Source of the DNA: Oscillospiraceae bacterium
Lineage (GTDB): Bacteria; Bacillota; Clostridia; Oscillospirales; CAG-272
NCBI GenBank assembly: GCA_015065455.1
Contig: SVQI01000001.1
Location: 61,090 to 125,089 of the forward strand
Reading direction: 5' to 3'
DNA: 64,000 bases
Shown here: positions 5,088-63,692 of the stretch, in pieces
How the letters are laid out: every line of letters begins with the position of its first letter
Position numbering within the stretch: the first letter of the stretch is position 1
The notes under the pieces: model-generated
What the model saw: only the letters and a program-made list of their open reading frames with translations
Told to the model about the DNA's origin: nothing
Database searches by the model: none
Position numbers and translations under genes: made by a program

Positions 5088-6905
5088 ATGAAAAAGTCAT
5101 TGTTGGCATTATTTTTAGCACTCGTTATGTGTTTGTCCCTTTTCTGCACAGCTTGTAGCAGTTCTGGTGATGAAGAAAACCCCGACGTTCTTAATACCTC
5201 GGAGTCTGACATCGCACCTATGACTATTACGCTTTACGCTCCGACAAACAGTACGACAACAAAAGATCAGGTAAAGCTCGTTGAAGCTGAATTTAACAAA
5301 GTTACAGAAGCTAAATTCAACACTCACGTTGTTTTTAACCTTATTCCCGAAGATGACTACGAAGAGGTTATCTACTCCAGACTCGAAGGCCTTCGCAAGC
5401 AGGCTGCAGCAGAGCTTGAAGATGAAACAAAGAAACCTAACGTTACTCCTCTTTCCGACAATTCAAAATATCCCGGTATCAAAGACAACCAGCTTGATAT
5501 ATTCTTGGTAAACACCTTTGAAACATATTACGCTTTGGCTACGGGAACATACTATAAGCCCGAAAATAACGAATTACCCGAAGGCGCGCTTTATCCCCTC
5601 GATGAATCACTCAAAGAAAAAACTACTCTTCTTAACTCATATGCATACCCCTACTTGCTCCGCGCAGCAAGAATAGACGACCTTGATACAGGTACACAGG
5701 GTGTATTCGGTGTATTCAACAACACTATTTTTGGTGAATACCAGTACCTTTTGCTCAACAAAGAGCTTGTTGACAAGTACAACTACGACCCCGAAAATAT
5801 GTTTGACCTTTCTTCTATCTCTCTCTTCTTGAAGGAAGTTAAGCAGAACGAAGCAGGCGTAATTCCCTTCCTCGGAGACCTCGAAGCTCCCGTTGAATAC
5901 TTTAACGGTACAAAGTCACTTATCGGCGCTTACGTTGGAAAAGATTATACTTCTTCCGGCACAATTAACGCTACAAGCTACCTTCCCGCAGCAACCGCAC
6001 CCAACAACCTCTTTAACTCAGCTGAGTACAGAGTATGGATGAGAGAATACAACTCTCTCTTTAATGCAGGTTGTTTCGTTGCAAAGACAGATGCAAACGC
6101 TAACTCCAAGTTTGCAGCTACAGTAGTTACAGGCGACGTAACACTTTCTCCCACATACGCTGACGTATACGGAAACTACAAGGTTGACGATTACGGTTTC
6201 AAGTATATTACATACGAAGACGGTGTTGATTACTACGTATCAGTTTACAAAAGACCCGTTGCAAATGACGAAAACGTATTTAAGGCAGGCTATGTTGTAG
6301 GCGGTTACACAGAAGACGCTGACCGTTGTATGGAAATTATTCAGGCGCTCAACACAGACGCTAAGCTCGCTAACCTCTTCATGTACGGTGTTCAGGATGT
6401 TCACTATACACTTAACGTTGACACAAACGTTGTTCACAAGACAACAGATACATATTCGATGGATATCGAAACTGTTGGTAACATGTACTTGCTCAATCCT
6501 TCCGACGATATGGATGAGTATTGGAAATTTATGAGCGCTAACAAATGGCAGAACGCAAAGAATACAAACCTCGAAGCAGTTATGAGTCCCTTCCTTGCAT
6601 TCCACTATGACCCTGAGCAGCCCGCTGAAGACGAACTTGAAGCAGGCAAGGTTTACATCGATATGTCTTTTGAAGAAGTTATGGCTGAAATCGAAAAGCT
6701 TTCTCCTGCATTCTACGAAAAGGCACTTCACTACGTTGAAACTCCCGAACTTCCCTTTGCTGACTACATTAAGACAGTATATACAGAAGTTTCCGAAAAC
6801 GAATACGTAAGTTCTATCGGTAGCTTTGATAAGGGTATGTACAACATGCAGCTTATCTACAAAGAATGGTATCAGGCTCACTACAACGTAAAGCTTGCTG
6901 ACTAA
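5088..6905 (+). CDS. Large secreted lipoprotein, possibly a solute-binding-protein-like fold; function unknown
   Basis: The N-terminal signal peptide ends in ...SLFCTAC-SSSGD, a lipobox-like Cys. There is a strong RBS (AGGAGG), a consensus promoter upstream and a terminator downstream. No transporter genes are adjacent. Confidence 0.6.
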   Translation: MKKSLLALFLALVMCLSLFCTACSSSGDEENPDVLNTSESDIAPMTITLYAPTNSTTTKDQVKLVEAEFNKVTEAKFNTHVVFNLIPEDDYEEVIYSRLEGLRKQAAAELEDETKKPNVTPLSDNSKYPGIKDNQLDIFLVNTFETYYALATGTYYKPENNELPEGALYPLDESLKEKTTLLNSYAYPYLLRAARIDDLDTGTQGVFGVFNNTIFGEYQYLLLNKELVDKYNYDPENMFDLSSISLFLKEVKQNEAGVIPFLGDLEAPVEYFNGTKSLIGAYVGKDYTSSGTINATSYLPAATAPNNLFNSAEYRVWMREYNSLFNAGCFVAKTDANANSKFAATVVTGDVTLSPTYADVYGNYKVDDYGFKYITYEDGVDYYVSVYKRPVANDENVFKAGYVVGGYTEDADRCMEIIQALNTDAKLANLFMYGVQDVHYTLNVDTNVVHKTTDTYSMDIETVGNMYLLNPSDDMDEYWKFMSANKWQNAKNTNLEAVMSPFLAFHYDPEQPAEDELEAGKVYIDMSFEEVMAEIEKLSPAFYEKALHYVETPELPFADYIKTVYTEVSENEYVSSIGSFDKGMYNMQLIYKEWYQAHYNVKLAD

Positions 6906-6921
6906 TTTAAAATAATTACAA

Positions 6922-6955
6922 AGCTCCCCGAAAAAATCGGGGAGCTTATTTTTAT
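6922..6955 (+). terminator. Intrinsic terminator of the lipoprotein gene
   Basis: AGCTCCCCGA-aaaaa-TCGGGGAGCT followed by a T-rich run. Confidence 0.8.
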
Positions 6956-6957
6956 TA

Positions 6958-7203
6958 TAAAACGGGCGGACAAACAAATCCGCCCCTACATAGTTAGGCT
7001 TTATTGTCTTGCTGTGCGTGTTCGAGATCCTTCGCTGCGCCGCCACGATGTCATTCTTGAGCGAAGCGAAGAATCCCGTGGCGGCTTGCTCAAGGATGAC
7101 AAACGAACACGCAATATAACGCGCTCCCGCGTTTTTTTAAAAGAGGCACAGATTGTCAGCTTCTTCGCTCCCGAACTCTTGACACCGCAAAAACTTTAAA
7201 TAG
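6958..7203 (+). repeat. Mosaic intergenic repeat, locus F (modules R, K, degenerate T, truncated H)
   Basis: Near-identical to 23425-23700 over the R and K modules. Lies in the convergent spacer between the lipoprotein gene and rplS. Confidence 0.9.
7015..7113 (+). repeat. Module K copy (orientation a)
   Basis: TGCGTGTTCG ... CGAACACGCA terminal inverted repeats enclose interleaved repeats B-C-D-B'-C'-D'. The C/C' pair is CCGCCACG/CGTGGCGG. Confidence 0.85.
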
Positions 7204-7235
7204 ATAATCATTTATTATTTTTCTATATTATTTTC

Positions 7236-7279
7236 AAAAAATAAAAACCCGATGGAAGATTGTTTCTTCCGTCGGGTTT
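7236..7279 (-). terminator. Intrinsic terminator of rplS
   Basis: Minus strand: AACCCGACGGAAG-aaacaat-CTTCCATCGGGTT followed by TTTTTATTTTTT. Confidence 0.75.
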
Positions 7280-19030: not shown

Positions 19031-19064
19031 GAGAGCGACACAAATTCGCTCTCTTTATTTTTTG
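19031..19064 (+). terminator. Intrinsic terminator after the lipid kinase gene
   Basis: GAGAGCGA-cacaaat-TCGCTCTC followed by TTTATTTTTT. Confidence 0.8.
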
Positions 19065-19404
19065 AGTAAGACGTGAGAATAGCCCCCTACAAATCTTAAG
19101 TTGCTAATAATTTAGACGACCTCATCCGTCGCGCCGCGTTATATAACAATATATATTTAAATATAATGGCGGCACGCCACCTTCTCCCACCGGAGAAGGC
19201 GCAAAATTAGTGCAAATTATAAGTAATAAAAAATATTTTATGAAATCATAAGACAATGATATAAAAACAAAAGACAAAGACTGTACTCTGTGCCTTCTCC
19301 AGTGGAAGAAGGTGGCACACCGCATACAGATTTTGTTTTTACAAATATAAAAAGCAGTGTGACGGATGAGTTCGTCTATCATACCAAATATTTCACTAAT
19401 TTTT

Positions 19405-19590
19405 ACCTCCATCTGACGAGGGAGGTGGCTCGGCAATAAACAGATATACAGTATAACTATTCTTTGTTGCCGAGACGGAGGGAGAGATATACGTTAATTA
19501 TCTGATTGCAATACTGTTTGTTTAAACCGTTCGTTTTTCTCTCCCTCAGTCAAAAACAAGTTTTTGACAGCTCCCTCCTCAGATGGAGCT
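19405..19590 (+). repeat. Module N, complete copy (nested hairpins, MITE-like 18-bp terminal inverted repeats)
   Basis: The outer arms are CTCCATCTGACGAGGGAG and CTCCCTCCTCAGATGGAG. They enclose three hairpins: CTCGGCAA/TTGCCGAG, GACGGAGGGAGAGA/TCTCTCCCTCAGTC and GTCAAAAAC-aa-GTTTTTGAC. Confidence 0.8.
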
Positions 19591-19708
19591 AAAAGATACA
19601 TTTTTAAAAAACCGAGGCGTCGAGGAAGGGGTTCCCCGAAACGCACGAAGTAAGTTTTGGGGGTTCTCGTGTGCGCCGTCCCCTACCAAATTAGGCAATA
19701 CCACTTTT

Positions 19709-19840
19709 GCAAACCAAGGGGGGTACCGAGGGAGGAACGCCCTCGGTCGTTTCAAGGGTTGGGTTCAAAGGGAGGGGAAATCGAAATCCCCGCCCTTTGT
19801 GCCTTCTTTGGTTACTTTCTTGGCACGCAAGAAAGTAACG
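19709..19840 (+). repeat. Module S copy 2
   Basis: Same architecture. The G-rich hairpin is AAAGGGAGGGGA-aatcgaaa-TCCCCGCCCTTT. Invariant hairpin at 19811-19839. Confidence 0.7.
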
Positions 19841-19933
19841 TAAAAAAGCAAAAGACAATATTATCTAATTAAAACGTTTGCTTTCTCTCCCTCAGTCAAC
19901 TTCGTTGACAGCGTCTACTGCGGTTCGGTCACG

Positions 19934-19981
19934 GCTCGAGAATGACAACGCGGCGGCGCAGCGAAGGATCCCGAACACGCA
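19934..19981 (-). repeat. Module K half copy (orientation b)
   Basis: GCTCGAGAATGACAACGCGGCGGCGCAGCGAAGGATCCCGAACACGCA equals the right half of the locus G copy. Confidence 0.8.
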
Positions 19982-20170
19982 ATTTAACGCGCTCTCGAAC
20001 CCTTGACAAAAGGGGCTTTTTAAAAAAAGCCCCTCTTGACTCCCCCAAAACTTTTAATAAAAATTTTTATATTATTATTTTAAAATAATATTTTAATTGC
20101 GCTTTTTGAAAAAAACTCCTTTGAAATCCGCAAAAACTTTAATAAGAATTTTAATTCTTATGCTTTGTGA

Positions 20171-20208
20171 AAACAAAAATCCCCTCTGTTTTGCTCAAAA
20201 CAGAGGGG
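20171..20208 (-). terminator. Intrinsic terminator of the SGNH hydrolase gene (hairpin usable on both strands)
   Basis: CCCCTCTGTTTT-gctc-AAAACAGAGGGG. The minus strand then reads ATTTTTGTTTT. Confidence 0.75.
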
Positions 20209-20221
20209 TATCTTTTATTTC

Positions 20222-21247
20222 TTATTTTGTGTGGGCTCTTATATAGTCTGTAAGCTTATTAACACCCGTTCTGTTAAGGTGAACGCCGTCGGGTGATTCG
20301 CTCGAATCAAGCCAGAGCGTGCCGTCCGCTTTAACAAACGCTTGTGCTGTATCTACAAAATATATTCCGCGCGACTTTGCTATATCAAGCGCCGCTTCGT
20401 TAAACTCCGCCATATGCTCGTTATTCAATCCCGAGCTTGCCTTGGAATGATCCCTTGATAACGGGAATATTGAGTACATGTATATCGCAGCATTGGGATT
20501 TGCTTCCATTATGGCGTCAATCAATACTTCGTAGTGATGCTTATAGGTTGCCGTTGCCAACCAGAACTCGTTTACACCAAGGCATATATATATCTTTCTG
20601 AATTCAGGATGTCTTGCCAACGCCTGAGGCACGGTGTATTTCTGACCGTTTTCTTCAATAAAGTTATTTGTCATCGCGGTGATAACATTAAGTCCCTGAT
20701 ATGCGTAAAACGTAGTGTTCTTTATGTCCCCGTAAAGCTGTAAGCCTTGCGTTCTTGAGTCTCCAACGAACACCGCGTCAGCAAAAAAGCTGTCGTCAAC
20801 CCTCTCCGATCTGTTAACCGGATATTCCGTTACTGTCGGTCTGCCCGTGTTTATTATTGGAGTATCTGTTATGGGCGGTTCTGTCACAGGCGCATCTGTT
20901 ACGGGTGCATCAGTTACAGGCGCGTCTGTAACCGGTGTATTCGTTGTGGGTGTATCCGTTACAGGTGTATTTGTTGTATCGGGTGTTGCCGTCGTTGTAT
21001 CAACTACCGTCGTAGTAGTATCAGTTGTCGTTGTATCATTTACTTCGGGCTGCTTTGTATCCTCGGGATTTCCCGTCGTATCTTCAGGCTTATCCTTTCC
21101 CGTTTCGTCTATCCCCGTTGTGTCCGATGGCTCATTAACCGTCGGTTCCGAACAGCCGGCTGTAAAGCAAACAGTCATCACAAGAATAACTGCAATAATT
21201 ATGTAAAAAAATGGTCTACATACATTTCTTATCTTTTCCATTTTCAC
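20222..21247 (-). CDS. Secreted SGNH/GDSL-family hydrolase with a Pro/Thr-rich linker
   Basis: Signal/lipobox-like N-terminus (...CFTAGCSEP), then a TDTPTTNTPVTDAPVTDAPVTDAP linker. SGNH block I is VFVGDSRT and block V is DGVHLN. GTG start lies after GAAGGAG. Confidence 0.7.
   Translation of the reverse strand: MKMEKIRNVCRPFFYIIIAVILVMTVCFTAGCSEPTVNEPSDTTGIDETGKDKPEDTTGNPEDTKQPEVNDTTTTDTTTTVVDTTTATPDTTNTPVTDTPTTNTPVTDAPVTDAPVTDAPVTEPPITDTPIINTGRPTVTEYPVNRSERVDDSFFADAVFVGDSRTQGLQLYGDIKNTTFYAYQGLNVITAMTNNFIEENGQKYTVPQALARHPEFRKIYICLGVNEFWLATATYKHHYEVLIDAIMEANPNAAIYMYSIFPLSRDHSKASSGLNNEHMAEFNEAALDIAKSRGIYFVDTAQAFVKADGTLWLDSSESPDGVHLNRTGVNKLTDYIRAHTK
20877..20981 (-). repeat. Imperfect tandem 15-bp repeats (about 7 units) encoding the (T/A)P(V/T)TD linker of the SGNH hydrolase
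   Basis: The + strand units are ggttctgtcacaggc / gcatctgttacgggt / gcatcagttacaggc / gcgtctgtaaccggt / gtattcgttgtgggt / gtatccgttacaggt / gtatttgttgtatcg. Confidence 0.7.
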
Positions 21248-21571
21248 TCTGACTCCTTCTAGCCTAACCTTTTAGGCCAATAATTTAGAGACCGCTAAAA
21301 CAGTCCCTTTAACTCATATTATACTCTCTTATTTAATCAAAATCAACTAATTATATCATAGGGAAAATTACAAATTCAATACATTTTAATTTATTTTTCG
21401 ACATTTGTGGATTTTTGGCACTATTGCACAATTTAACTCTTGTTATTTGATGCATATATTACAAACAAAAATTTGCTGTTTTTTCGAAAAATCACTCTGA
21501 AATTTTTTCGTTTTTGCATAACAAGGCGTTGCTTTGCATATATTGTTTTTTGTTTAATATAGGCTTTTCGG

Positions 21572-21600
21572 TTGACAAAAGCTTTTCTTTAATATACAAT
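21572..21600 (+). promoter_or_regulatory. Putative promoter for the nucleotidyltransferase-HAD pair
   Basis: TTGACA, a 17-nt spacer, then TACAAT, about 110 nt upstream of the ATG. Confidence 0.45.
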
Positions 21601-21707
21601 AATTATTATACTACAGAATTTGAAATCGGGTACTGTTTTTTTGCGGTTTGCAAATGATTTTTACCCCGACTTAACTAATATAATTTCAAATAAAGCGAGG
21701 TAATACT

Positions 21708-22640
21708 ATGGAAAATTACTACACCAAACCCGCACTTATAATTATGGCGGCAGGTATGGGAAGCCGTTTTGGCGGGTTGAAGCAGGTTACTCCCCTCGGT
21801 CCTTCAGGTGAACTTATTATCGACTACTCTATCCACGATGCTATGGAAGCAGGCTTTGAAAGAGTAGTATTTGTAATCAAACACCAGATTGAAGATGTTT
21901 TTAAAGAATTTATTGGAAACAGAATAGAAAAAATCATTCAGACAGACTATGTTTTTCAGGAATTGACTGAGCTCCCCGAGGGCTACTCCGTTCCCGAAGG
22001 CAGAGTTAAACCCTACGGCACAGCGCATGCAGTATGGTGCTGCCGTAATATCGTAAAGGGTCCCTTTGTGGTCATTAACTCCGACGACTACTATGGCAAA
22101 GACTGCTTTAAGCTCCTTTACAATTTTATTACAAAGCCCACCAACGACGGCATTAAACACTTGGCTATGGCGGGATATATCCTTGAAAACACTCTTACGG
22201 AAAACGGCTCAGTTTCAAGAGGCGTTTGCGAAATTGACGAAAACAACAAGATCATCAGCATCGAAGAACGTACAAAGATAGAAATAAGAAATGGCACACC
22301 TATGTACACGGAAGACGACGGCAAAACTTGGACAGAGCTTGACAGAAACGCTTACGTTTCAATGAACTGCTGGGGCTATCCTTCCGATATGTTCGGTCTG
22401 TTCGACAAAGAGCTCCGTATTTTCCTTGACGGACTTGACAGTAACCCCTTGAAAGGCGAATTTTACCTTCCCATCATGGCGGACAAGTTGACAAAAGAAG
22501 GCATCGCAGACATTACTGTTCTTCCCGTTTCTGACAGATGGTTCGGAGTTACGTACGCAGAGGACAAACCGATGGTTATGAAAGCCCTTAAGGATCTTGC
22601 AGATAAAGGCGTTTACGCTCAGAATCTGTGGGATAGATAA
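21708..22640 (+). CDS. Sugar-phosphate nucleotidyltransferase family protein
   Basis: N-terminal IIMAAGMGSRFGGLKQ, the G-x-G-x-R nucleotidyltransferase signature. Substrate unknown. Confidence 0.7.
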   Translation: MENYYTKPALIIMAAGMGSRFGGLKQVTPLGPSGELIIDYSIHDAMEAGFERVVFVIKHQIEDVFKEFIGNRIEKIIQTDYVFQELTELPEGYSVPEGRVKPYGTAHAVWCCRNIVKGPFVVINSDDYYGKDCFKLLYNFITKPTNDGIKHLAMAGYILENTLTENGSVSRGVCEIDENNKIISIEERTKIEIRNGTPMYTEDDGKTWTELDRNAYVSMNCWGYPSDMFGLFDKELRIFLDGLDSNPLKGEFYLPIMADKLTKEGIADITVLPVSDRWFGVTYAEDKPMVMKALKDLADKGVYAQNLWDR

Positions 22641-22732
22641 TTTTTTCAAACGATCTTCTTTAACGGAGATGCTTCCCCCAAAAAGCGTCTCCGTTGTTTA
22701 ACATTTCAGCATTTTATCAGGAGAATTAAAAA

Positions 22733-23383
22733 ATGAAATACGAAGCGGTCATTTTTGACCTTGACGGAACACTTTTGAATACGCTTGACGACCTCGCGGA
22801 CAGCCTTAATTACACCCTAAAAAAGAACGGCCTGCCCGAAAGAACGAGAGACGAGGTCAGACTGTTTGTGGGCAACGGAATAAGAAAGCTTATGGAGAGA
22901 GGAGTTCCCACAGGTACAGAGGTTGACGTTATTGACAAGGTCCATTCGGATTTTACAGAGCATTACAAAATACACTGCAACGACAAGACACGACCCTACG
23001 ACTCCGTTCTTGATATACTTGCAAAGCTAAAAAATGCAGGCGTTAAGCTTGCCGTTCTTTCAAATAAAGCCGACTATGCCGTTCAGGATCTGTGCGTAAG
23101 ATACTTTGAAGGACTTATTGACGTAGCGGCGGGGGAAATTATCGGCATACCAAAAAAGCCGTCGCCCGAGGGAGTTTACAATACTCTTGAAAAGCTTGGC
23201 GTTACAGCCGAAAAATGCGTATACATAGGCGACTCTGACGTTGACGTTCTGACGGCAAAAAATTCAAATATGGACTGTATTGCTGTTGACTGGGGTTTCA
23301 GAGACAGAGATGTTCTTGTAAATGCGGGCGCTGAAGTTATTGTATCTTCCCCCGAGAAGCTTTTTGAAGAATTAATTAAATAA
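22733..23383 (+). CDS. HAD-superfamily phosphatase (phosphoglycolate phosphatase/PpaX-like)
   Basis: HAD motif I VIFDLDGTLLNT, motif II SNK and motif III/IV GDSDVD. Confidence 0.8.
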   Translation: MKYEAVIFDLDGTLLNTLDDLADSLNYTLKKNGLPERTRDEVRLFVGNGIRKLMERGVPTGTEVDVIDKVHSDFTEHYKIHCNDKTRPYDSVLDILAKLKNAGVKLAVLSNKADYAVQDLCVRYFEGLIDVAAGEIIGIPKKPSPEGVYNTLEKLGVTAEKCVYIGDSDVDVLTAKNSNMDCIAVDWGFRDRDVLVNAGAEVIVSSPEKLFEELIK

Positions 23384-23394
23384 TTAAGCAAAAA

Positions 23395-23416
23395 GGAGCT
23401 AAAAAGCTCCTTTTTT
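23395..23416 (+). terminator. Intrinsic terminator after the HAD phosphatase gene
   Basis: GGAGCT-aaaa-AGCTCC followed by TTTTTT. Confidence 0.7.
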
Positions 23417-23424
23417 GTTGTTAA

Positions 23425-23700
23425 AAAACGGTCGGACAAACAAATCCGCCCCTACATAGTTAGGCTTTATTGTCTTACTGTGCGTGTTCTAGATCCTTCG
23501 CTGCGCCGCCACGATGTCATTCTTGAGCGAAGCGAAGAATCCCGTGGCGGCTTGCTCAAGGATGACAAACGAACACGCAATATAACACGCTCCCGCGTTT
23601 TTTAAAAGGAGTCCATACAATCAGGAGCTTCGCTCCCGAACCCATACAAAAGGAGCGCTTTTAAAAAAGCGCCCTCTTGACTCCCTCAAAACTTTAAAAA
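23425..23700 (+). repeat. Mosaic intergenic repeat, locus F2 (modules R, K, T-like, H)
   Basis: Aligns with 6958-7203 and 62596-62820. Confidence 0.9.
23481..23579 (+). repeat. Module K copy (orientation a)
   Basis: Near-identical to 7015-7113. Confidence 0.85.
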
Positions 23701-23786
23701 CCAGCATAATATGACCTGTATATCTCTTACATAGTTTTTGATTTATGCATATTATATTATATAATATATAAAAATAATAAAATATA

Positions 23787-23815
23787 TTTACATTGTTGCA
23801 AAAAAGTGGTATAAT
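23787..23815 (+). promoter_or_regulatory. Putative gdpP-rplI-dnaB promoter
   Basis: TTTACA, a 17-nt spacer, then TATAAT preceded by TGg (extended -10). Confidence 0.5.
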
Positions 23816-23889
23816 GAGTATGATTGCAGATTTTATATTCTGCGATGGGTAGATTTGATTTATGAATTTTTACGCTCGGTGAGGTAATT

Positions 23890-37033: not shown

Positions 37034-37049
37034 TGTTTCACGTGGAACA
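37034..37049. promoter_or_regulatory. parS-like site (15 of 16 matches)
   Basis: TGTTTCACGTGGAACA versus the Firmicute parS consensus TGTTNCACGTGAAACA. It lies between noc and soj. Confidence 0.75.
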
Positions 37050-37079: not shown

Positions 37080-37095
37080 TGTTTCACGTGAAACA
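37080..37095. promoter_or_regulatory. parS site (perfect consensus)
   Basis: TGTTTCACGTGAAACA is a perfect 16-bp palindrome matching the parS consensus, 46 bp from the first site. Confidence 0.85.
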
Positions 37096-39402: not shown

Positions 39403-40239
39403 ATGAACAACAACATTCAAGCAAGAACTCCCACAAGAAGAAAAAGACCACCTCAAAAGAAGTACAACAAAACAGGCAGACTTTTGCTCGTTATGGCGGT
39501 AGCTTCATTGTTAGCAATACTCGTAATATTTATTGTTGGATTTATTATAGGATACAGATACATTACGGTAAAAACAGACGACGGAACTATTAAATATTTT
39601 GGCACCGTTGATGCTACCGGTATGCTGAAAAAAGGCACTCTTTATTTCTCAAACGGAAACAAAGGTCTGGTTGACGGCAAAAAGAGTACAATAACCTATA
39701 CAAACGGCGACGTTTATACCGGCGGATTATCCCAGCTTCAGAAAAACGGCGAGGGAACACTGAAATATAAGAACGGAGACGTTTACGAGGGTGGATTTAA
39801 GGACAATCAGTTCTCGGGAAAAGGCGTATTTAAATACAAAAACGGAGACGTTTACGAGGGCGAATATAAAGAAGGTCTTATGGACGGAGAAGGAAAATAC
39901 ACCTGGTCCGACGGCTCTTCTTACGAGGGTGAATTTAAAGCAAACAAGCGTAACGGCCTCGGAAAATTTACAATAACCGATAGCTCATACTACGAAGGCA
40001 GCTACGTGAATGATGCAAAAGAAGGCAAGGGTAAGTATGTTTTTGAAAACGGCGACGTTTACGAAGGCGACTACAAAGCCGACATCAGAACAGGCAAAGG
40101 CACGTACACCTGGGCAAACGGTGAATGCTATACGGGTGATTTTGTAAACAACGATATGCACGGCTACGGCAAATACACATGGCCAAGCGGCAGAGTCTAC
40201 GAAGGCAAATTCCATCAGGGAAAAATTGTTGTTGAATAA
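39403..40239 (+). CDS. MORN-repeat membrane-anchored protein
   Basis: One N-terminal TM helix, then about 9 tandem repeats of Y.NGD.YEG....G...G.G. Confidence 0.75.
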   Translation: MNNNIQARTPTRRKRPPQKKYNKTGRLLLVMAVASLLAILVIFIVGFIIGYRYITVKTDDGTIKYFGTVDATGMLKKGTLYFSNGNKGLVDGKKSTITYTNGDVYTGGLSQLQKNGEGTLKYKNGDVYEGGFKDNQFSGKGVFKYKNGDVYEGEYKEGLMDGEGKYTWSDGSSYEGEFKANKRNGLGKFTITDSSYYEGSYVNDAKEGKGKYVFENGDVYEGDYKADIRTGKGTYTWANGECYTGDFVNNDMHGYGKYTWPSGRVYEGKFHQGKIVVE

Positions 40240-40248
40240 TAGAAATTT

Positions 40249-40281
40249 AATGCGCTGTTTTAACAAACAGCGCATTTTTTA
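40249..40281 (+). terminator. Intrinsic terminator after the MORN-repeat gene
   Basis: AATGCGCTGTTT-taac-AAACAGCGCATT running into TTTTTT. Confidence 0.75.
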
Positions 40282-40287
40282 TATTAT

Positions 40288-40960
40288 GTTGTCGGGTCGG
40301 AGGGAGAGATAATTGTTAATTATTTGATTGCAATATTGTTTGTTTAAACCGTTCATTTTTCTCTCCCTCAGTCAAAAACAAGTTTTTGACAGCTCCCTCG
40401 TCAGATGGAGCTAAAAGATACATTTTTAAAAAATCGGGACGTCGAGGAAGGGGTTCCCCGAAACGCACGAAGTAAGTTTTGAGGGTTCTCGTGTGCGCCG
40501 TCCCCTACCAAATTAGGCAATACCACTTTTGCAAACCAAGGGGGGTACCGAGGGAGGAACGCCCTCGGCCGTTTGAAAGGGAGGGGTCAAGGGGAGGGGA
40601 GGATCGGAACTCCCTCTCCCCTTTGTGCCTTCTTTGGTTACTTTCTTGGCACGCAAGAAAGTAACGTAAAAAAAGAAAAGACAATATTATCTGTTTAAAA
40701 CGTTTGCTTTTCTCTCCCTCAGTCAAAAACAAGTTTTTGACAGCGTCTACTGCGGTTCGGTCACGGCTCGGCTCTGACATCACACCGTGATGTCATTCAC
40801 TCCCTCGCCGCCGCTTCGCTACCTCGTCAGATGGAGCCGAGAATTACGCGCTTCGCGCGTAAAAAGACACAGAATGTCAGCTTCTTTGCTCCCAAACCCA
40901 CACAAGAGGAGAACTTTTAAAAAAGTGCCCTCTTGACTCCCTCAAAACTTTTAATAAAAA
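40288..40960 (+). repeat. Mosaic intergenic repeat, locus C (5'-truncated N, L, S, N-arm fragment, degenerate K, T, H)
   Basis: 40291-40666 aligns almost base for base with 19466-19840. Confidence 0.9.
40531..40666 (+). repeat. Module S copy 3
   Basis: Same architecture. Invariant hairpin at 40637-40665. Confidence 0.7.
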
Positions 40961-40983
40961 ATATTATATTATTTTTTTCAAAT

Positions 40984-45342: not shown

Positions 45343-45760
45343 GAGGGTACCGAGAAAAAAACATTTTAACCCCCAAAAAACAAAAAGTATAACCTAACTT
45401 TCCATCTTTTGCAAACCAAGGAGGGTTCCGAGGGAGGAACGCCCTCGGCCGTTTGAAAGGGAGGGGTCAAGGGGAGGGGAGGATCGGAACTCTCCTCCCC
45501 TTTGTGCCTTCTTTGGTTACTTTCTTGGCACGCAAGAAAGTAACGTAAAAAAGAAAAGACAATATTATCTGTTTGAAACGTTTGCTTTTCTCTCCCTCAG
45601 TCATTTTCTAACGAAAATGCCAGCTCCCTCGTCAGATGGAGCCGAGAATTACGCGCTTCGCGCGTAAAAAGGCACAGAATGTCAGGAGCTTCGCTCCCGA
45701 ACCCACACAAAAGGAGCGCTTTTAAAAAAGCGCCCTCTTGACTCCCCCAAAACTTTTAAA
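45343..45760 (+). repeat. Mosaic intergenic repeat, locus D (S with an alternative leader, N right arm, T, H)
   Basis: Starts 2 nt after the stop codon of the GT8-acyltransferase fusion, with no terminator in between. The S module is near-identical to locus C. Confidence 0.9.
45411..45545 (+). repeat. Module S copy 4
   Basis: The G-rich hairpin AAGGGGAGGGGAG-gatcggaa-CTCTCCTCCCCTT pairs fully with one G-T. Invariant hairpin at 45516-45544. Confidence 0.7.
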
Positions 45761-45771
45761 TATTAAATAAT

Positions 45772-45806
45772 ACAAAAAGGAGCTTTTAAAAGCTCCTTTT
45801 TATTTT
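45772..45806. terminator. Bidirectional terminator (serves ymdB on the minus strand)
   Basis: Perfect 26-nt palindrome AAAAGGAGCTTTTAAAAGCTCCTTTT flanked by T-runs on both strands. Confidence 0.75.
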
Positions 45807-50049: not shown

Positions 50050-50670
50050 ATGAAAAAGACAGTTTCAAGAGCAACGTTGGGCAGAGTTCCCGTCTACTTA
50101 AAATGTTTAAAATCATTACCTGAAGATGAAAAATACGTTTCAGCCACAAAAATTGCAACAAAGCTAAAGCTTGGCGACGTTCTCGTAAGAAAAGACCTTC
50201 AGGCGATAAGCGGAGAGGGAAAACCCAAGGTCGGATATGAAAAAAACGAGCTTATAGAAAAGCTCGCCGAATATCTTGAAAACGTAGACAAAAGAAACCG
50301 CGCTGTCATAGTCGGTGCAGGTAAATTGGGGTGCGCTTTACTTTGCTACGGCGGATTCAAAGATTTTGGAGTTGATATAGTTGCCGCCTTTGACAACGAC
50401 GAAAAAAAGGTTGGAACGGTCGTCGGGGGGAAAAATATATATTCTATTGACGAATTTGAAAAATTCTGCACGGAAAACGAAATAAACATAGGAATTATAA
50501 CAGTTCCGTCAGCATTTGCACAAAGCGTGTGTGACAAAATGGTTTCTTGCGGAGTCAAGGCGATATGGAATTTCGGTTCGGCATCGCTCAACGTTCCTGA
50601 AAACATTATCGTTCAGCAAGAAAACCTTGCATTATCACTCGCATATCTCAACGTCTTAATAACAAATTAA
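50050..50670 (+). CDS. rex: Redox-sensing transcriptional repressor Rex
   Basis: N-terminal winged helix (TLGRVPVYLKCL) and Rossmann motif VGAGKLGCAL. The start is set at the ATG at 50050 after GGAGGA. The track ORF start at 49963 overlaps the previous gene. Confidence 0.85.
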   Translation: MKKTVSRATLGRVPVYLKCLKSLPEDEKYVSATKIATKLKLGDVLVRKDLQAISGEGKPKVGYEKNELIEKLAEYLENVDKRNRAVIVGAGKLGCALLCYGGFKDFGVDIVAAFDNDEKKVGTVVGGKNIYSIDEFEKFCTENEINIGIITVPSAFAQSVCDKMVSCGVKAIWNFGSASLNVPENIIVQQENLALSLAYLNVLITN

Positions 50671-50678
50671 AACACGTC

Positions 50679-50772
50679 AATTATTGAAATTTTTTGAAGA
50701 TTCCAAAGGGGCTTTTTTCAAAAAGCCCCTTTGGCGTGGTTTCAGGAGTGGAACTCCTGACATTTTGTGCCT
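50679..50772 (-). repeat. Mosaic intergenic repeat, locus I (reverse orientation; second T hairpin plus H)
   Basis: The reverse complement reads GGCACAAAATGTCAGGAGTTCCACTCCTGAAACCACGCCAAAGGGGCTTTTTGAAAAAAGCCCCTTTGGAATC... This is collinear with GGCACAGAATGTCAGGAGCTTCGCTCCCGAACCCACACAAAAGGAGCGCTTTTAAAAAAGCGCCCTCTTGACTC at 45671-45742. Confidence 0.8.
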
Positions 50773-50776
50773 CTAC

Positions 50777-50808
50777 AAAAAAACAGGAGCATTTGCTCCC
50801 GTTTTTTA
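50777..50808. terminator. Short bidirectional hairpin terminator between rex (+) and the UPF0371 gene (-)
   Basis: GGAGC-attt-GCTCC with an A-run before and a T-run after. The stem is short, so confidence is modest. Confidence 0.5.
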
Positions 50809-55694: not shown

Positions 55695-56117
55695 ATAAAA
55701 CAAAAAGTATAACCTAACCTTCCATCTTTCGCAAACGATGGGGGTGCAAAGGGGGTAATCCCCCTTTGTCGTTTGGTGGTTGGGGGTCGAGGGGGAGGAG
55801 GAATCGGAACCTCCGCCCCCTTGTGCCTTCTTTGGTTACTTTCTTGGCACGCAAGAAAGTAACATAAAAAAGAAAAAGACAATATTATTTAGCCAAACAA
55901 TACGTTTTAAAACAAAAAAACGCTCTCGCGTTTTTCAAAGGAGCACAAACAATCAGGAGCTTCGCTCCCGAACCCACACAAAAGGAGCACTTTTGAAAAA
56001 GTGCCCTCTTGACTCCCTCAAAACTTTTAATAAAAAATTATATATTATTTTTTAAGATAATATTTTAATTACGCTTTTTGAAAAAAGCTCCTTTGGAATC
56101 CGCAAAAACTTTTATTA
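55695..56117 (+). repeat. Mosaic intergenic repeat, locus E (S with an alternative leader, partial T, H, H')
   Basis: It shares the leader ACAAAAAGTATAACCTAAC(C/T)TTCCATCTT with locus D. It has the invariant hairpin at 55835-55863 and H modules at 55980-56117. Confidence 0.9.
55731..55864 (+). repeat. Module S copy 5 (most divergent)
   Basis: Hairpin 1 is replaced by the unrelated CAAAGGGGG-taat-CCCCCTTTG. The G-rich hairpin is GGGGGAGGAGG-aatcggaa-CCTCCGCCCCC. Invariant hairpin at 55835-55863. Confidence 0.7.
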
Positions 56118-56120
56118 AAA

Positions 56121-56153
56121 CAAAAAAAGACGGCTGTTTAAACCGTCTTTTTA
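56121..56153. terminator. Bidirectional terminator (serves ackA on the minus strand)
   Basis: AAGACGG-ctgtttaaa-CCGTCTT flanked by A7 upstream and T-rich sequence downstream. Confidence 0.7.
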
Positions 56154-60163: not shown

Positions 60164-60262
60164 TGCGTGTTCGATTGTCATCCTTGAGCAAGCCGCCGCG
60201 AGATTCTTCGCTACGCTCGAGAATGACAACGCGGCGGCGCAGCGAAGGATCCCGAACACGCA
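60164..60262 (-). repeat. Module K copy (orientation b, inverted relative to its downstream flank)
   Basis: The 79-nt interior equals the reverse complement of the interior of 62647-62745 at every position I checked by hand. Confidence 0.85.
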
Positions 60263-60343
60263 ATTTAACGCGCTCCCGAACCCACACCAAAGGTGCTTTT
60301 TGAAAAAAACTCCTTTGGAATCCGCAAAAACTTTTAATAAAAA
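60164..60343 (+). repeat. Mosaic intergenic repeat, locus G (K in inverted orientation, then an H/H' hybrid)
   Basis: 60164-60262 is the exact reverse complement of the K core at 62648-62744. The downstream flank AATTTAACGCGCTCCCGAACCC is in the same orientation as at locus H. Confidence 0.9.
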
Positions 60344-60459
60344 TTTTTTATATTATTTTTTCAAAATAATTATCTTTTGTTTTCCTGCGCCGACAGCGTT
60401 TACTCTTAAAAAATTCACATAAAATTTAACAAATTTTAGTGTATTTCTTCCAAAAGGTC

Positions 60460-62259: not shown

Positions 62260-62296
62260 ATACCGTTGCATTTTTACGTGCAACGGTATTTTTTTG
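62260..62296 (+). terminator. Intrinsic terminator after the thioesterase gene
   Basis: ATACCGTTGCA-tttttac(g)-TGCAACGGTAT followed by TTTTTTT. Confidence 0.8.
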
Positions 62297-62383
62297 CATT
62301 ACGGGCGGATAGCAAAAACCACCCTACTCACAGATAAGGTCAAAGGATAGAAATTGAACAGAGACGAATTTGCACTAACTTTT

Positions 62384-62571
62384 ACCTCCATCTGACGAGG
62401 GAGGTGGCTCGGCAGTCAGCAAATATCAATTTTAATTTATCTTTGCTGCCGAGACGGAGGGAGAGATATGTGTTAGATTTTTGATTGCAATATTGTGTGT
62501 TTAAACCGTTCGTTCTTCTCTCCCTCAGTCATTTTCTAACAAAAATGCCAGCTCCCTCGTCAGATGGAGCT
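62384..62571 (+). repeat. Module N, complete copy
   Basis: Same outer arms (CTCCATCTGACGAGGGAG / CTCCCTCGTCAGATGGAG). The first hairpin is compensated to CTCGGCAG/CTGCCGAG. The third hairpin is replaced by CATTTTC-taac-(A)AAAATG. Confidence 0.8.
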
Positions 62572-62646
62572 AAAAAGTTAGATTATTTCGGGAAAACGGA
62601 CGTATAGCAAAAACGCCCCTACAATTTTAGGGTTTATTGTCTTAAC

Positions 62647-62745
62647 CGCGTGTTCGGGATCCTTCGCTGCGCCGCCGCGTTGTCATTCTCGAGCGTAGCG
62701 AAGAATCTCGCGGCGGCTTGCTCAAGGATGACAATCGAACACGCA
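62647..62745 (+). repeat. Module K copy (orientation a)
   Basis: Same layout. The C/C' pair is CCGCCGCG/CGCGGCGG, a compensated change relative to locus F. Confidence 0.85.
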
Positions 62746-62962
62746 ATTTAACGCGCTCCCGAACCCACACAAGAGGTGCACTTTTGAAAAAGTGCCCTCT
62801 TGACTCCCTCAAAACTTTTAATAAAAATTTTTATATTATTTTAATTGCGCTTTTGAAAAAAGCTCCTTTGGAATCCGCAAAAACTTTAAATAGAAAAATA
62901 TCTTTACATTTTTTTATTAGTATGTTATACTAAAATGAGAGATAATATATATAAAAAAAGGG

Positions 62963-63304
62963 GTGTTACGTGTGGAAAATAACGTTTGCGACAACAAGGA
63001 TATTGCTTTTATTTGCGACGAAATGAAAAGACTTTTTGACATCGAATTGCTCGTTGTTTTCGGCATTAAACGCAGAGAAAAAGACAATGCAGTTACCGAC
63101 CTCGATATTTGCGTCGTTTGCGAACACGATAACAAAAACGCGTGGATTAAAAAAGCTTACCTCGAAATTGACAGCGATATTCCTTTTGATATTTCTCTGT
63201 ACACACCGTCGGAGTGGAACAGCTTAATTGAAAAACCCGAGAGCTTCGCCTCCCGAATTTTGCGAAAGGGGTGTGTAGTTTATGGCAAGACGCAAAACCA
63301 GTGA
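62963..63304 (+). CDS. Minimal nucleotidyltransferase (MNT) domain protein, putative antitoxin partner
   Basis: Pol-beta NTase pattern LLVVFGIKRREKDNAVTDLDICVV. GTG start at 62963, or at 62972 with an AAGGGG RBS 9 nt upstream. Confidence 0.7.
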   Translation: MLRVENNVCDNKDIAFICDEMKRLFDIELLVVFGIKRREKDNAVTDLDICVVCEHDNKNAWIKKAYLEIDSDIPFDISLYTPSEWNSLIEKPESFASRILRKGCVVYGKTQNQ

Positions 63305-63692
63305 CAGCAAGGTTTACACCGATTGGTTGATTTACGCCGAAAACGACCTCCGCGCCGCCGCTCTTCTGCGAAGAAGTCCGCATACGCTTTTGCTTTCCGC
63401 TTTTCATTCACATCAGGCAATCGAGAAAACCATCAAGGCTTTTATGCTTTCAAATAAGGGATACGCGCCCGACGGGCACAATATAATATTTTTGTGCAAG
63501 ATGGCGTCAAGGATAAACGAAGGATTTTTTGACTGGATTGACGAGTGCGTCGCACTCAACAACTACTACGTTCAAACAAGATATCCGCCCGACTTTCCTC
63601 TCGAAATCGACAAGGCAACCGCAAAGAAGCTTTCGATTATGGCGCAGAATCTATATAAATTTACGCTCAACGAGCTTGCTAAATTTGAGTAA
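63282..63692 (+). CDS. HEPN domain protein, putative toxin partner of the MNT
   Basis: HEPN pattern A..DL..A..L.......A.F..HQAIEK.IKAF...G....GHN...L and the C-terminal YYVQTRYP. The gene overlaps the MNT gene by 23 nt. Confidence 0.7.
   Translation: MARRKTSDSKVYTDWLIYAENDLRAAALLRRSPHTLLLSAFHSHQAIEKTIKAFMLSNKGYAPDGHNIIFLCKMASRINEGFFDWIDECVALNNYYVQTRYPPDFPLEIDKATAKKLSIMAQNLYKFTLNELAKFE

Follow-up and report, generated by a model that had tools for sequence, protein, structure and literature searches.

Does the chromosome of a Clostridia-type bacterium carry repeats of the kind known as repetitive extragenic palindromic (REP) sequences? The question is posed by a short hairpin, here named R, in a 64,000-nucleotide stretch of an Oscillospiraceae contig (SVQI01000001.1), which we refer to as the window and whose forward strand supplies all coordinates given without a locus number. 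An initial annotation had described positions 6964-6989 as a hairpin followed directly by CTAC, and had predicted that a REP-associated tyrosine transposase (RAYT) would be found elsewhere in the genome. The letters at these coordinates do read GGGCGGA-caaacaaa-TCCGCCC-CTAC, a 7-bp stem without mismatch, an 8-nt loop and a CTAC tail, and the opposite strand presents, also as claimed, GTAG followed by a GC-rich palindrome, the structure by which GTAG-tagged REPs are defined (PMC3733652, PMC6006769). We find that R is a real repeat under structural constraint, that its anatomy places it among the GTAG-tagged, REP-type stem-loop repeats, and that modular intergenic repeats peculiar to this rumen Oscillospiraceae lineage have it as their leading edge unit. 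R is a REP-like variant in a phylum without an earlier description of such repeats, and its mechanism is unproven.

Units of R share a plan in which an A-run and a C precede a 6-7-bp stem starting with GGG or GGA, followed by an A-rich loop, a 3' arm ending in CCC, and CTAC; five or six bases further on there is often TTAGG(G/C)TTTATT. All seven stem pairs are perfect in the copy at 6964 and five to seven pairs are present elsewhere, and the loops are of 5-12 nt, mostly 6-8, with ~55 nt in two long forms. A search of the window with the canonical pattern, allowing up to three mismatches, gave two plus-strand matches besides the hairpin's own reverse reading, compared with 0.01 expected. Two covariance models were used, R1 built from nine R units and R2 from a larger alignment (A3, 19 distinct rows). 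With filters off, R2 identifies six R units in the window (E = 2e-15 to 2e-3; Table 1), all extragenic and all on the plus strand, and nothing else below E = 0.05, the marginal match at 50774-50807 (E = 0.076) being an ordinary terminator. Three of the degenerate versions listed in the initial annotation (23430-23455, 62303-62327 and 62597-62622) are real variants, whereas the fourth, at 19081-19090, retains just the tail ...AGCCCCCTACA beside a degenerate hairpin. Two long-loop units had been overlooked (19607-19686 and 40429-40508), with a GGGACG/CGTCCC-type stem and the same CTAC tail as the short forms. The second of these (unit 5) was absent from the R1 training set, but its match is a row of the alignment behind R2, leaving the R1 score (26.9 bits, E = 6e-4) as its sole independent one.

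The family extends beyond the window. R1 recovered units that it had not seen, namely the two long forms and L012:5453, L020:176, L024:9174, L027:9395 and L029:16603, where L-numbered loci are related contigs fetched from other samples or relatives, ~391 kb in total and partly redundant; routes to these further copies were a spurious 61-aa open reading frame (ORF) on a larger repeat, D2, described below, and the neighbours of window genes. There are about ten distinct R units on these contigs from the same or related rumen Oscillospiraceae beyond the window's six, and at the site of unit 4 another sample (L030) has GGGCGGA...CGCCC. Six units per 64 kb, and seven per ~79 kb of unselected sequence, extrapolate to ~200 per genome. 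Rfam gave no match at gathering thresholds and, in E-value mode, just sub-threshold noise around R; exact scans with CAAACAAATCCGCCCCTAC of collections without the host genome met only chance matches in genes of unrelated organisms (five genome_contigs, three metagenome_contigs); and nothing was found in viral_contigs scans or by blastn of D2 against plasmids and phages. The motif CCCTAC by itself occurs at 16 plus-strand sites in the window, seven within mosaic repeats and the others in genes or other spacers. A loose scan of the window for a hairpin plus TAC returned mostly noise, and a tabulation of the tags next to all of its perfect GC-rich hairpins is powerless because just one R has a perfect stem.

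Structural constraint is apparent from the covariation of the stems. In A3, which was fitted to the model and so favours structure, 83.6% of cells are paired compared with 71.7% after shuffling and the covariation score is 0.312 compared with 0.132, neither value being reached by any of 500 shuffles; compensatory changes are present in five of the seven stem pairs, and sliding the partner columns by 1-3 lowers the pairing to 39-58%. A hand-independent MAFFT alignment of nine units goes in the same direction but is weaker, with 79.8% paired and the covariation reached by 3 of 500 shuffles. Complementary stem types are GGGCGGA/TCCGCCC, GGACGT/ACGCCC, GGGAGG/CCTCCC, GGGACG/CGTCCC, GGACAG/CTGTCC and GGGCGAC/GTCGCCC. 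The four nucleotides after the stem were counted in 18 rows (the 19 of A3 minus L024:1422, an ordinary terminator picked up by the R model) and are CTAC in 13, CTAT in two, ATAC in one, and either no tag or GTTT in two, the last two rows being both strand readings of a single hairpin at L029:16603. The proposal of a family with a conserved CTAC tail is therefore borne out, and covariation in five of seven pairs, together with at least four stem types sharing one tag, argues for selection on the hairpin and tag themselves.

A fixed tag next to covarying stems is the definition of a REP (PMC3733652, PMC6006769), and it is this combination that points to the REP type, since a terminator needs no tag. 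REPs are described as having GTAG or GTGG 0-2 nt from the foot of a hairpin whose stem has at least seven fully paired positions and at least three G/C in the first four, the hairpin being either short-looped (2-5 nt) or long and bulged (PMC6006769); GTAG repeats have basal stems of 6-13 bp, with loops of 9-15 nt in family GTAG-15, and lie outside genes, for the most part after ORFs and in spacers between unidirectional or convergent genes (PMC3733652). R has the GC-rich basal stem, the tag on its minus strand abuts that stem directly (CTAC, CTAT or ATAC in plus-strand reading, 16 of 18 rows), and the six window units are all intergenic. Compared with the GTAG-tagged REPs of E. coli and Pseudomonas (GTAG-1 to GTAG-24, Di Nocera et al. 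2013, PMC3733652), R has in common an unpaired GTAG at the foot of a 6-7-bp GC stem, subfamilies with alternative complementary stem residues, an extragenic location downstream of genes and between convergent genes, and a density of about one per 10 kb; some REP families also occur mostly as single units. In contrast, the host of R belongs to the Firmicutes/Clostridia, its loops are long and A-rich, a conserved A-run and C flank the far side of the stem, the copies are more diverged from one another, and R is never free-standing and keeps a fixed post-terminator place heading mosaics, with neighbouring units in this genome head-to-tail only, which is rare for REPs. GTAG repeats have been reported from Proteobacteria, Cyanobacteria, Chloroflexi and the Planctomycetes-Verrucomicrobia-Chlamydiae (PVC) group, with Firmicutes unmentioned (PMC3733652).

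The mosaics that R either opens, or in which it heads an internal module, are intergenic repeats amounting to ~4.4 kb, or ~7% of the window (Table 1). This figure excludes repeats inside a MORN-repeat gene that are also caught by self-comparison; the gene, at 39403-40239, encodes a 278-aa protein (Pfam E = 9e-44) with 69-nt tandem DNA repeats at 39694-39872. The mosaics are patchworks of at least eight hairpin-rich modules in an order that varies between sites, all but one on the plus strand, and include five copies in the window of a perfect 12-bp hairpin module, GTTACTTTCTTG-gcacg-CAAGAAAGTAAC; four of nine mosaics lie between convergent genes. The 200-nt repeat D2 (6946-7145, 23412-23611 and 62578-62777) has R as its first 30-odd bases, followed by a 25-nt spacer, a 99-nt imperfect palindrome and a short hairpin with a T7 run, and its palindrome and R form one unit in at least six loci. 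Between one and the same pair of outer arms, GCGTGTTCG ... CGAACACGC, the palindrome occurs either way round, 'flip' or 'flop' (7015-7113, 23481-23579 and 62648-62745 as against the flipped 60164-60262, and also in the L012, L014 and L018 mosaics); 60164-60261 matches 62648-62745, read as its reverse complement, at 100% identity, and only half a palindrome is found at 19934-19981. Gene callers put small spurious ORFs on the mosaic repeats, such as the 61-aa ORF at 7014-7199 on D2, and D2 is lineage-restricted, because this ORF has only six protein clusters. In all, the right-hand neighbours led by R are of at least four kinds: D2, a G-rich module and two others. The G-rich module (GGGGTACCGAGGGAGGAACGCCCTCGG..., at 19711-19775 and 45414-45477) gives sub-threshold matches to the Rfam Clostridiales-2 RNA (RF02937), of 28 and 22 bits compared to a gathering threshold of 58.6.

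The placement of R is regular. In five independent loci its stem starts 13-19 nt past the terminator stem of the upstream gene (16 nt at 6964, 14 nt at 23430, where the terminator belongs to a HAD hydrolase gene, and 13 nt at 62303, with similar distances in L012 and L014). Three of the window units follow a terminator directly, several lie after gene 3' ends and several between convergent genes, and adjacent units are head-to-tail and 295-560 nt apart, and R recurs as module head (62296 with 62591, 19063 with 19607, and two sites apiece in the L012 and L014 mosaics). The initial annotation had placed R in structures like enterobacterial bacterial interspersed mosaic elements (BIMEs), and R does lie in mosaic intergenic repeats downstream of genes, in which short motifs occur in variable order and a tagged hairpin recurs as punctuation. 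A BIME, however, is built of alternating REPs and linkers, whereas here the R units share one direction and the modules are for the most part unrelated hairpins that R does not bound. The Neisseria intergenic mosaic elements (NIMEs), mosaics punctuated by dRS3, may be a comparable arrangement.

Such an organisation could mean that R has no role of its own and is just the start, a few dozen bases long, of larger composite repeats (D2, the G-rich module) that are spread by homologous or illegitimate recombination between hairpins, its REP likeness being coincidental. The right-hand context of R is fixed, module order varies among mosaics, contigs from other samples break or recombine at them, and the 3' arm and CTAC outlive the 5' arm at three fusions of D2 and G-rich modules (L012:5780 and the reverse-complemented L014 and L018 mosaics), so the hairpin is not always maintained. 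We nevertheless consider this unlikely, as it does not account for the covariation or for the sharing of one tag by so many stem types, and a mere part of one module would not be expected to head at least four.

The A-run that precedes the stem raises a different alternative, that R is merely a minus-strand intrinsic terminator or RNA-stabilising hairpin at the mosaic edge, whose GC stem and GUUUU(U) stop transcripts leaving the mosaic towards the neighbouring gene; CTAC would then be kept by common descent alone, and the modules would spread by recombination with no dedicated enzyme. On the minus strand the GC hairpin does directly precede a U-run, at least four A's (a minus-strand T-run) lie just 5' of the stem in 13 of 18 units, and a terminator scan reports 6985-6964 and 23451-23434, both on the minus strand, as terminator-like. 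The R model also catches ordinary terminators (L024:1422 and window 50774-50807), and an inverted mosaic in L018 puts R, with terminator polarity, just upstream of the leader of the next gene. A hairpin in L029 (~L029:16610) with the identical stem GGGCGGA/TCCGCCC, but lacking CTAC, lies ~17 nt past the stop of a pemK-like gene and reads as that gene's only terminator because no other hairpin lies between the two. The gene itself, encoding a pemK-type toxin, is at L029:16120-16593, ~6 kb beyond the window end.

Judging from these sequence features, R can probably terminate transcripts exiting the mosaic. That termination is its whole function is a possibility we take seriously but doubt, for the fixed CTAC beside quite different stems is left unexplained, and several copies have a U-run of only four. 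The folding energy is -16.6 kcal/mol for the canonical hairpin (z = -3.7), whereas the degenerate copies show no advantage over shuffles (z = -0.05 to -1.1). Convergent genes have terminators of their own, such as 7245-7279 for rplS, and no conserved minus-strand promoter was found inside the mosaic: TTTAAA-N17-TATATT is present at 7141-7113 and 23606-23579 but missing from the third D2 copy, for which reason a minus-strand small RNA running from a promoter at 7141-7113 to an end at R was also rejected. Set beside Rho-independent terminators at large, R shares the minus-strand GC hairpin and T-run, and the L029 copy appears to serve a gene, but R has the GTAG/CTAC tag and the shared flanks of a repeat family, and sits after a gene's own terminator in the opposite polarity.

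The tag also overlaps a mini-palindrome, CCTA-N6-TAGG, at 6987-6998 on the plus strand (TTAGG at 6994-6998, with TTTATTGTCTT next), and this palindrome could be the functional site, bound by a dimeric protein such as a site-specific recombinase or a nucleoid protein, with the mosaics as rearrangement hot spots. IHF, for comparison, binds some BIMEs. Sequences of the form CCCTA-caattt-TAGGG and relatives recur, with the three modelled pairs kept in ~83-85% of cells, and synteny breaks at five mosaics, where contigs from other samples change neighbours exactly (L012 joins the window at 19672, with further changes in L024, L027, L028, L030 and L033); in the closest relatives (L019-L021), moreover, the lipase-NTP transferase-HAD block that two mosaics flank here (20222-23383) has the opposite orientation. 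The half-sites are, however, very short at 4-5 bp, covariation in their pairs is essentially nil, TTAGG is less conserved than CTAC and is lost from several CTAC-bearing units, and among recombinases just one was seen, a large serine recombinase encoded by a variant contig. The mosaic breakpoints are also weak evidence of rearrangement, because L033, in which the 605-aa gene is joined via D2 directly to gdpP, lacks the 16.5 kb of essential genes in between and is most probably a chimera of assembly rather than a deletion between the two D2 copies; the synteny breakpoints at mosaics may in part be artefacts. We regard this palindrome as a very improbable functional site. An integron attC origin was rejected. 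Sites of that type have R'' and R' core sites (RYYYAAC ... GTTRRRY) round an imperfect palindrome and lie in promoterless cassette arrays beside intI; GTTAGGC follows the tag in two copies only, others having TTTAGGG, ATTAGGC or ATTAAAC, and the flanks are core housekeeping genes, with no integrase in the genes examined.

We favour, tentatively and with somewhat less than even confidence, the explanation that a protein acting in trans recognises the R hairpin and tag on single-stranded nucleic acid. By analogy with the sole established precedent, the Y1 (HUH) transposases of the RAYT or IS200/IS605 kind, hairpin and adjoining tag would be read jointly, in single-stranded form, by a protein sensing both structure and sequence. 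Such an enzyme would act in trans to spread R-led modules, preferring the spot just past a terminator's T-run, and as a side effect R would come to be an outward-facing intrinsic terminator at the mosaic edge; we infer the protein, its identity and the mobility of R in this proposal. The location of all six window units on the plus strand is compatible with strand-specific transposition of single-stranded DNA (PMC6006769). Clostridia commonly carry IS200-type TnpA, whereas RAYT-like class 2 genes are sparse except in a few Gram-negative groups (PMC6006769), and Group 1 RAYTs are present in Clostridia although abundant REPs are tied only to groups 2 and 3 (PMC5581495).

A number of observations weigh against recognition by such a protein. 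No Y1_Tnp (PF01797) or RayT-like gene was found in the window and 10 kb on either side or in the other fetched loci: Pfam reported no PF01797 among the called genes of the former, hmmscan found no PF01797-type domain in ten unannotated ORFs, E. coli RayT had no match by tblastn or phmmer in the 391 kb of fetched loci, and no Y1 gene was present in any of the loci to which the 61-aa ORF search led (L014-L018 and L034). We think it rather unlikely that this genome has a RAYT-type cognate gene. The loops of R do not keep to the 2-5 nt of the REP rule, and the A-run is not a REP feature and is better explained by a terminator role. R always has the same kinds of right neighbour (CTAC-N6-TTAGG...), and may simply ride inside larger repeats, because it is never seen alone. 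Its orientation is not tied simply to transcription, because two mosaics in L018 oppose both flanking genes. To these points can be added the fitting of A3 to its model and the diversity of the copies, a 19-mer spanning loop, arm and tag occurring only twice in the window. REPIN (REP doublet) populations usually cluster round a master sequence.

The arrangement of units bears on the same issue. The basic unit of REPINs and BIMEs is two inverted REPs (PMC6006769), and the inverted doublets for which the initial annotation proposed a check are absent from the window. Two tail-to-tail inverted doublets, both with 23-nt spacers, do occur in a mosaic of a relative at 82% protein identity (L021, also L020:96-223; Table 1): the first is GGGACG...CGTCCC-CTAC, 23 nt, ATAG-GAGCGGA...TACGCCC, six mismatches from canonical R, and the second a long R ending in CTAC, 23 nt, GTAT-GGGCGAC...GTCGCCC. 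Both pair unlike hairpins, in which they resemble BIME pairs of unlike REPs, and a REPIN-like fold was rejected, as the arms fold separately and form no single long hairpin. REPIN-RAYT systems were reportedly treated by Bertels and Rainey in 2011 and Ton-Hoang and colleagues in 2012. R resembles these systems, or REPtrons (Quentin et al. 2018, PMC6006769), in having the hairpin and tetranucleotide form of a TnpA-REP substrate and, in the 82% relative, a fixed doublet spacer; the missing RAYT, the missing doublets in the window and the absence of one long hairpin in L021 set it apart.

Insertion sequences of the IS200/IS605 family and their miniature derivatives, the palindrome-associated transposable elements (PATEs), offer a further comparison. 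Like R, they have a strand-specific hairpin and adjacent short motif read as single-stranded DNA, end hairpins in direct orientation, and an orientation biased to one strand; unlike them, R has no tnpA or tnpB nearby, and its tag abuts the hairpin as in REPs rather than lying 10-20 nt away. A PATE has two subterminal direct hairpins and inserts on the 3' side of a fixed tetra- or pentanucleotide without any duplication. The head-to-tail R pairs (62296/62591, 19063/19607, and those in L012 and L014) yielded no empty site that would mark element ends and a target tetranucleotide, and their left flanks share T-rich sequence only. Nor was an empty orthologous site found in the relatives at 82-84% and 70% identity, which are not close enough to define insertion ends; in the former the lipase-HAD block is inverted, with a clean 40-nt spacer, and in the latter gene order is kept and the syntenic spacers lack a mosaic, so the R family is young and confined to a narrow clade. 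Taken in its full form, the proposal that R is the substrate of a RAYT- or IS200-like Y1 transposase encoded elsewhere in the genome, a Clostridial REP-type system whose head-to-tail tagged hairpins seed post-terminator mosaics over ~7% of the stretch and mark rearrangement points, is one to which we give only a low probability.

Table 1. R units and associated features. Positions are those of the window unless a locus is named; scores are from covariance model R2.
Feature	Position	Strand	Parts	Remarks
R unit 1, canonical	6957-6989	+	A-run + C 6959-6963; stem 6964-6970/6979-6985 (GGGCGGA/TCCGCCC); loop 6971-6978; CTAC 6986-6989	68 bits, E = 2e-15
R unit 2	23423-23455	+	A-run + C 23423-23429; stem 23430-23436/23445-23451 (GGTCGGA/TCCGCCC, one mismatch); CTAC 23452-23455	66 bits; heads D2 copy of 95% identity
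R unit 3, variant	62296-62327	+	GGGCGG 62303-62308; loop atagcaaaaa; CCACCC 62319-62324 (5/6 pairs); TAC 62325-62327	29 bits, E = 6e-5; module after it different
R unit 4, variant	62591-62622	+	AAAAC 62593-62597; GGACGT 62598-62603; loop atagcaaaa; ACGCCC 62613-62618; CTAC 62619-62622	63 bits; heads third D2 copy, within mosaic
R unit 5, long form	40429-40508	+	GGGACG 40436-40441/CGTCCC 40499-40504, ~57 nt between arms; CTAC 40505-40508	39 bits, E = 1e-7; heads G-rich module
R unit 6, long form	19607-19686	+	weaker 5' arm GAGGCG; 3' arm CGTCCC 19677-19682; CTAC 19683-19686	23 bits, E = 2e-3; heads G-rich module
Degenerate remnant	19063-19090	+	...GACGTGAGAATAGCCCCCTACA	left edge of largest mosaic; tail present, hairpin unconvincing; missed by R1 and R2
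Terminator stem of 605-aa gene	6921-6947			16 nt before stem of R unit 1
D2 long imperfect palindrome	7015-7113	+		25 nt past CTAC; DNA fold -43.4 kcal/mol, z = -5.8
D2-closing hairpin	7118-7139	+	AACGCG-ctcc-CGCGTT + T7 run	terminator-like on + strand
Inverted doublet, relative	L021:561-649		tags CTAC ... ATAG	exactly 23 nt between tags
Inverted doublet, relative	L021:960-1105		tags CTAC ... GTAT	exactly 23 nt between tags
Mosaic repeats	342-612, 6891-7241, 19391-20195, 23357-23838, 40278-40983, 45377-45799, 50650-50772, 55697-56123, 60164-60386, 62370-62950

The host is of Clostridia type, as had been supposed from the sequence, because window proteins have identical matches in an uncultured Ruminococcaceae/Oscillospiraceae metagenome-assembled genome, the window genes are core chromosomal ones (dnaG-rpoD, rplS, tig-clpP-clpX, gdpP-rplI-dnaB, ftsH, mnmG-rsmG and parB-parA-parB), and Spo0A and SpoIIE are encoded on the adjoining DNA. 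Window DNA is also present on a 243-kb rumen-type metagenome contig. Among other features of the window are two parS-like palindromes, GTTTCACGTGGAAC (37035-37048) and GTTTCACGTGAAAC (37081-37094), in the spacer between the parB/noc-like gene and parA, parS-like matches numbering four by strand in the window compared with 0.07 expected. Two overlapping genes at 62972-63692, one for a small nucleotidyltransferase (weak Polbeta/NTP_transf_2 match) and one with a HEPN domain, look like an MNT-HEPN toxin-antitoxin pair.

Outside the Proteobacteria and a few other Gram-negative phyla, REPs and their domesticated transposases are hardly known. The finding would be an ordinary one if R were no more than a terminator-like border of larger repeats. 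In practical terms the mosaics, at ~7% of the sequence, break or mis-join metagenome assemblies of this lineage, and gene callers report small 'genes' in them. The presence in an uncultured rumen Clostridia bacterium of GTAG-tagged hairpins whose stems covary would widen the range over which repeats of this type occur, and the R system would provide a second, differently organised case for how such repeats persist.

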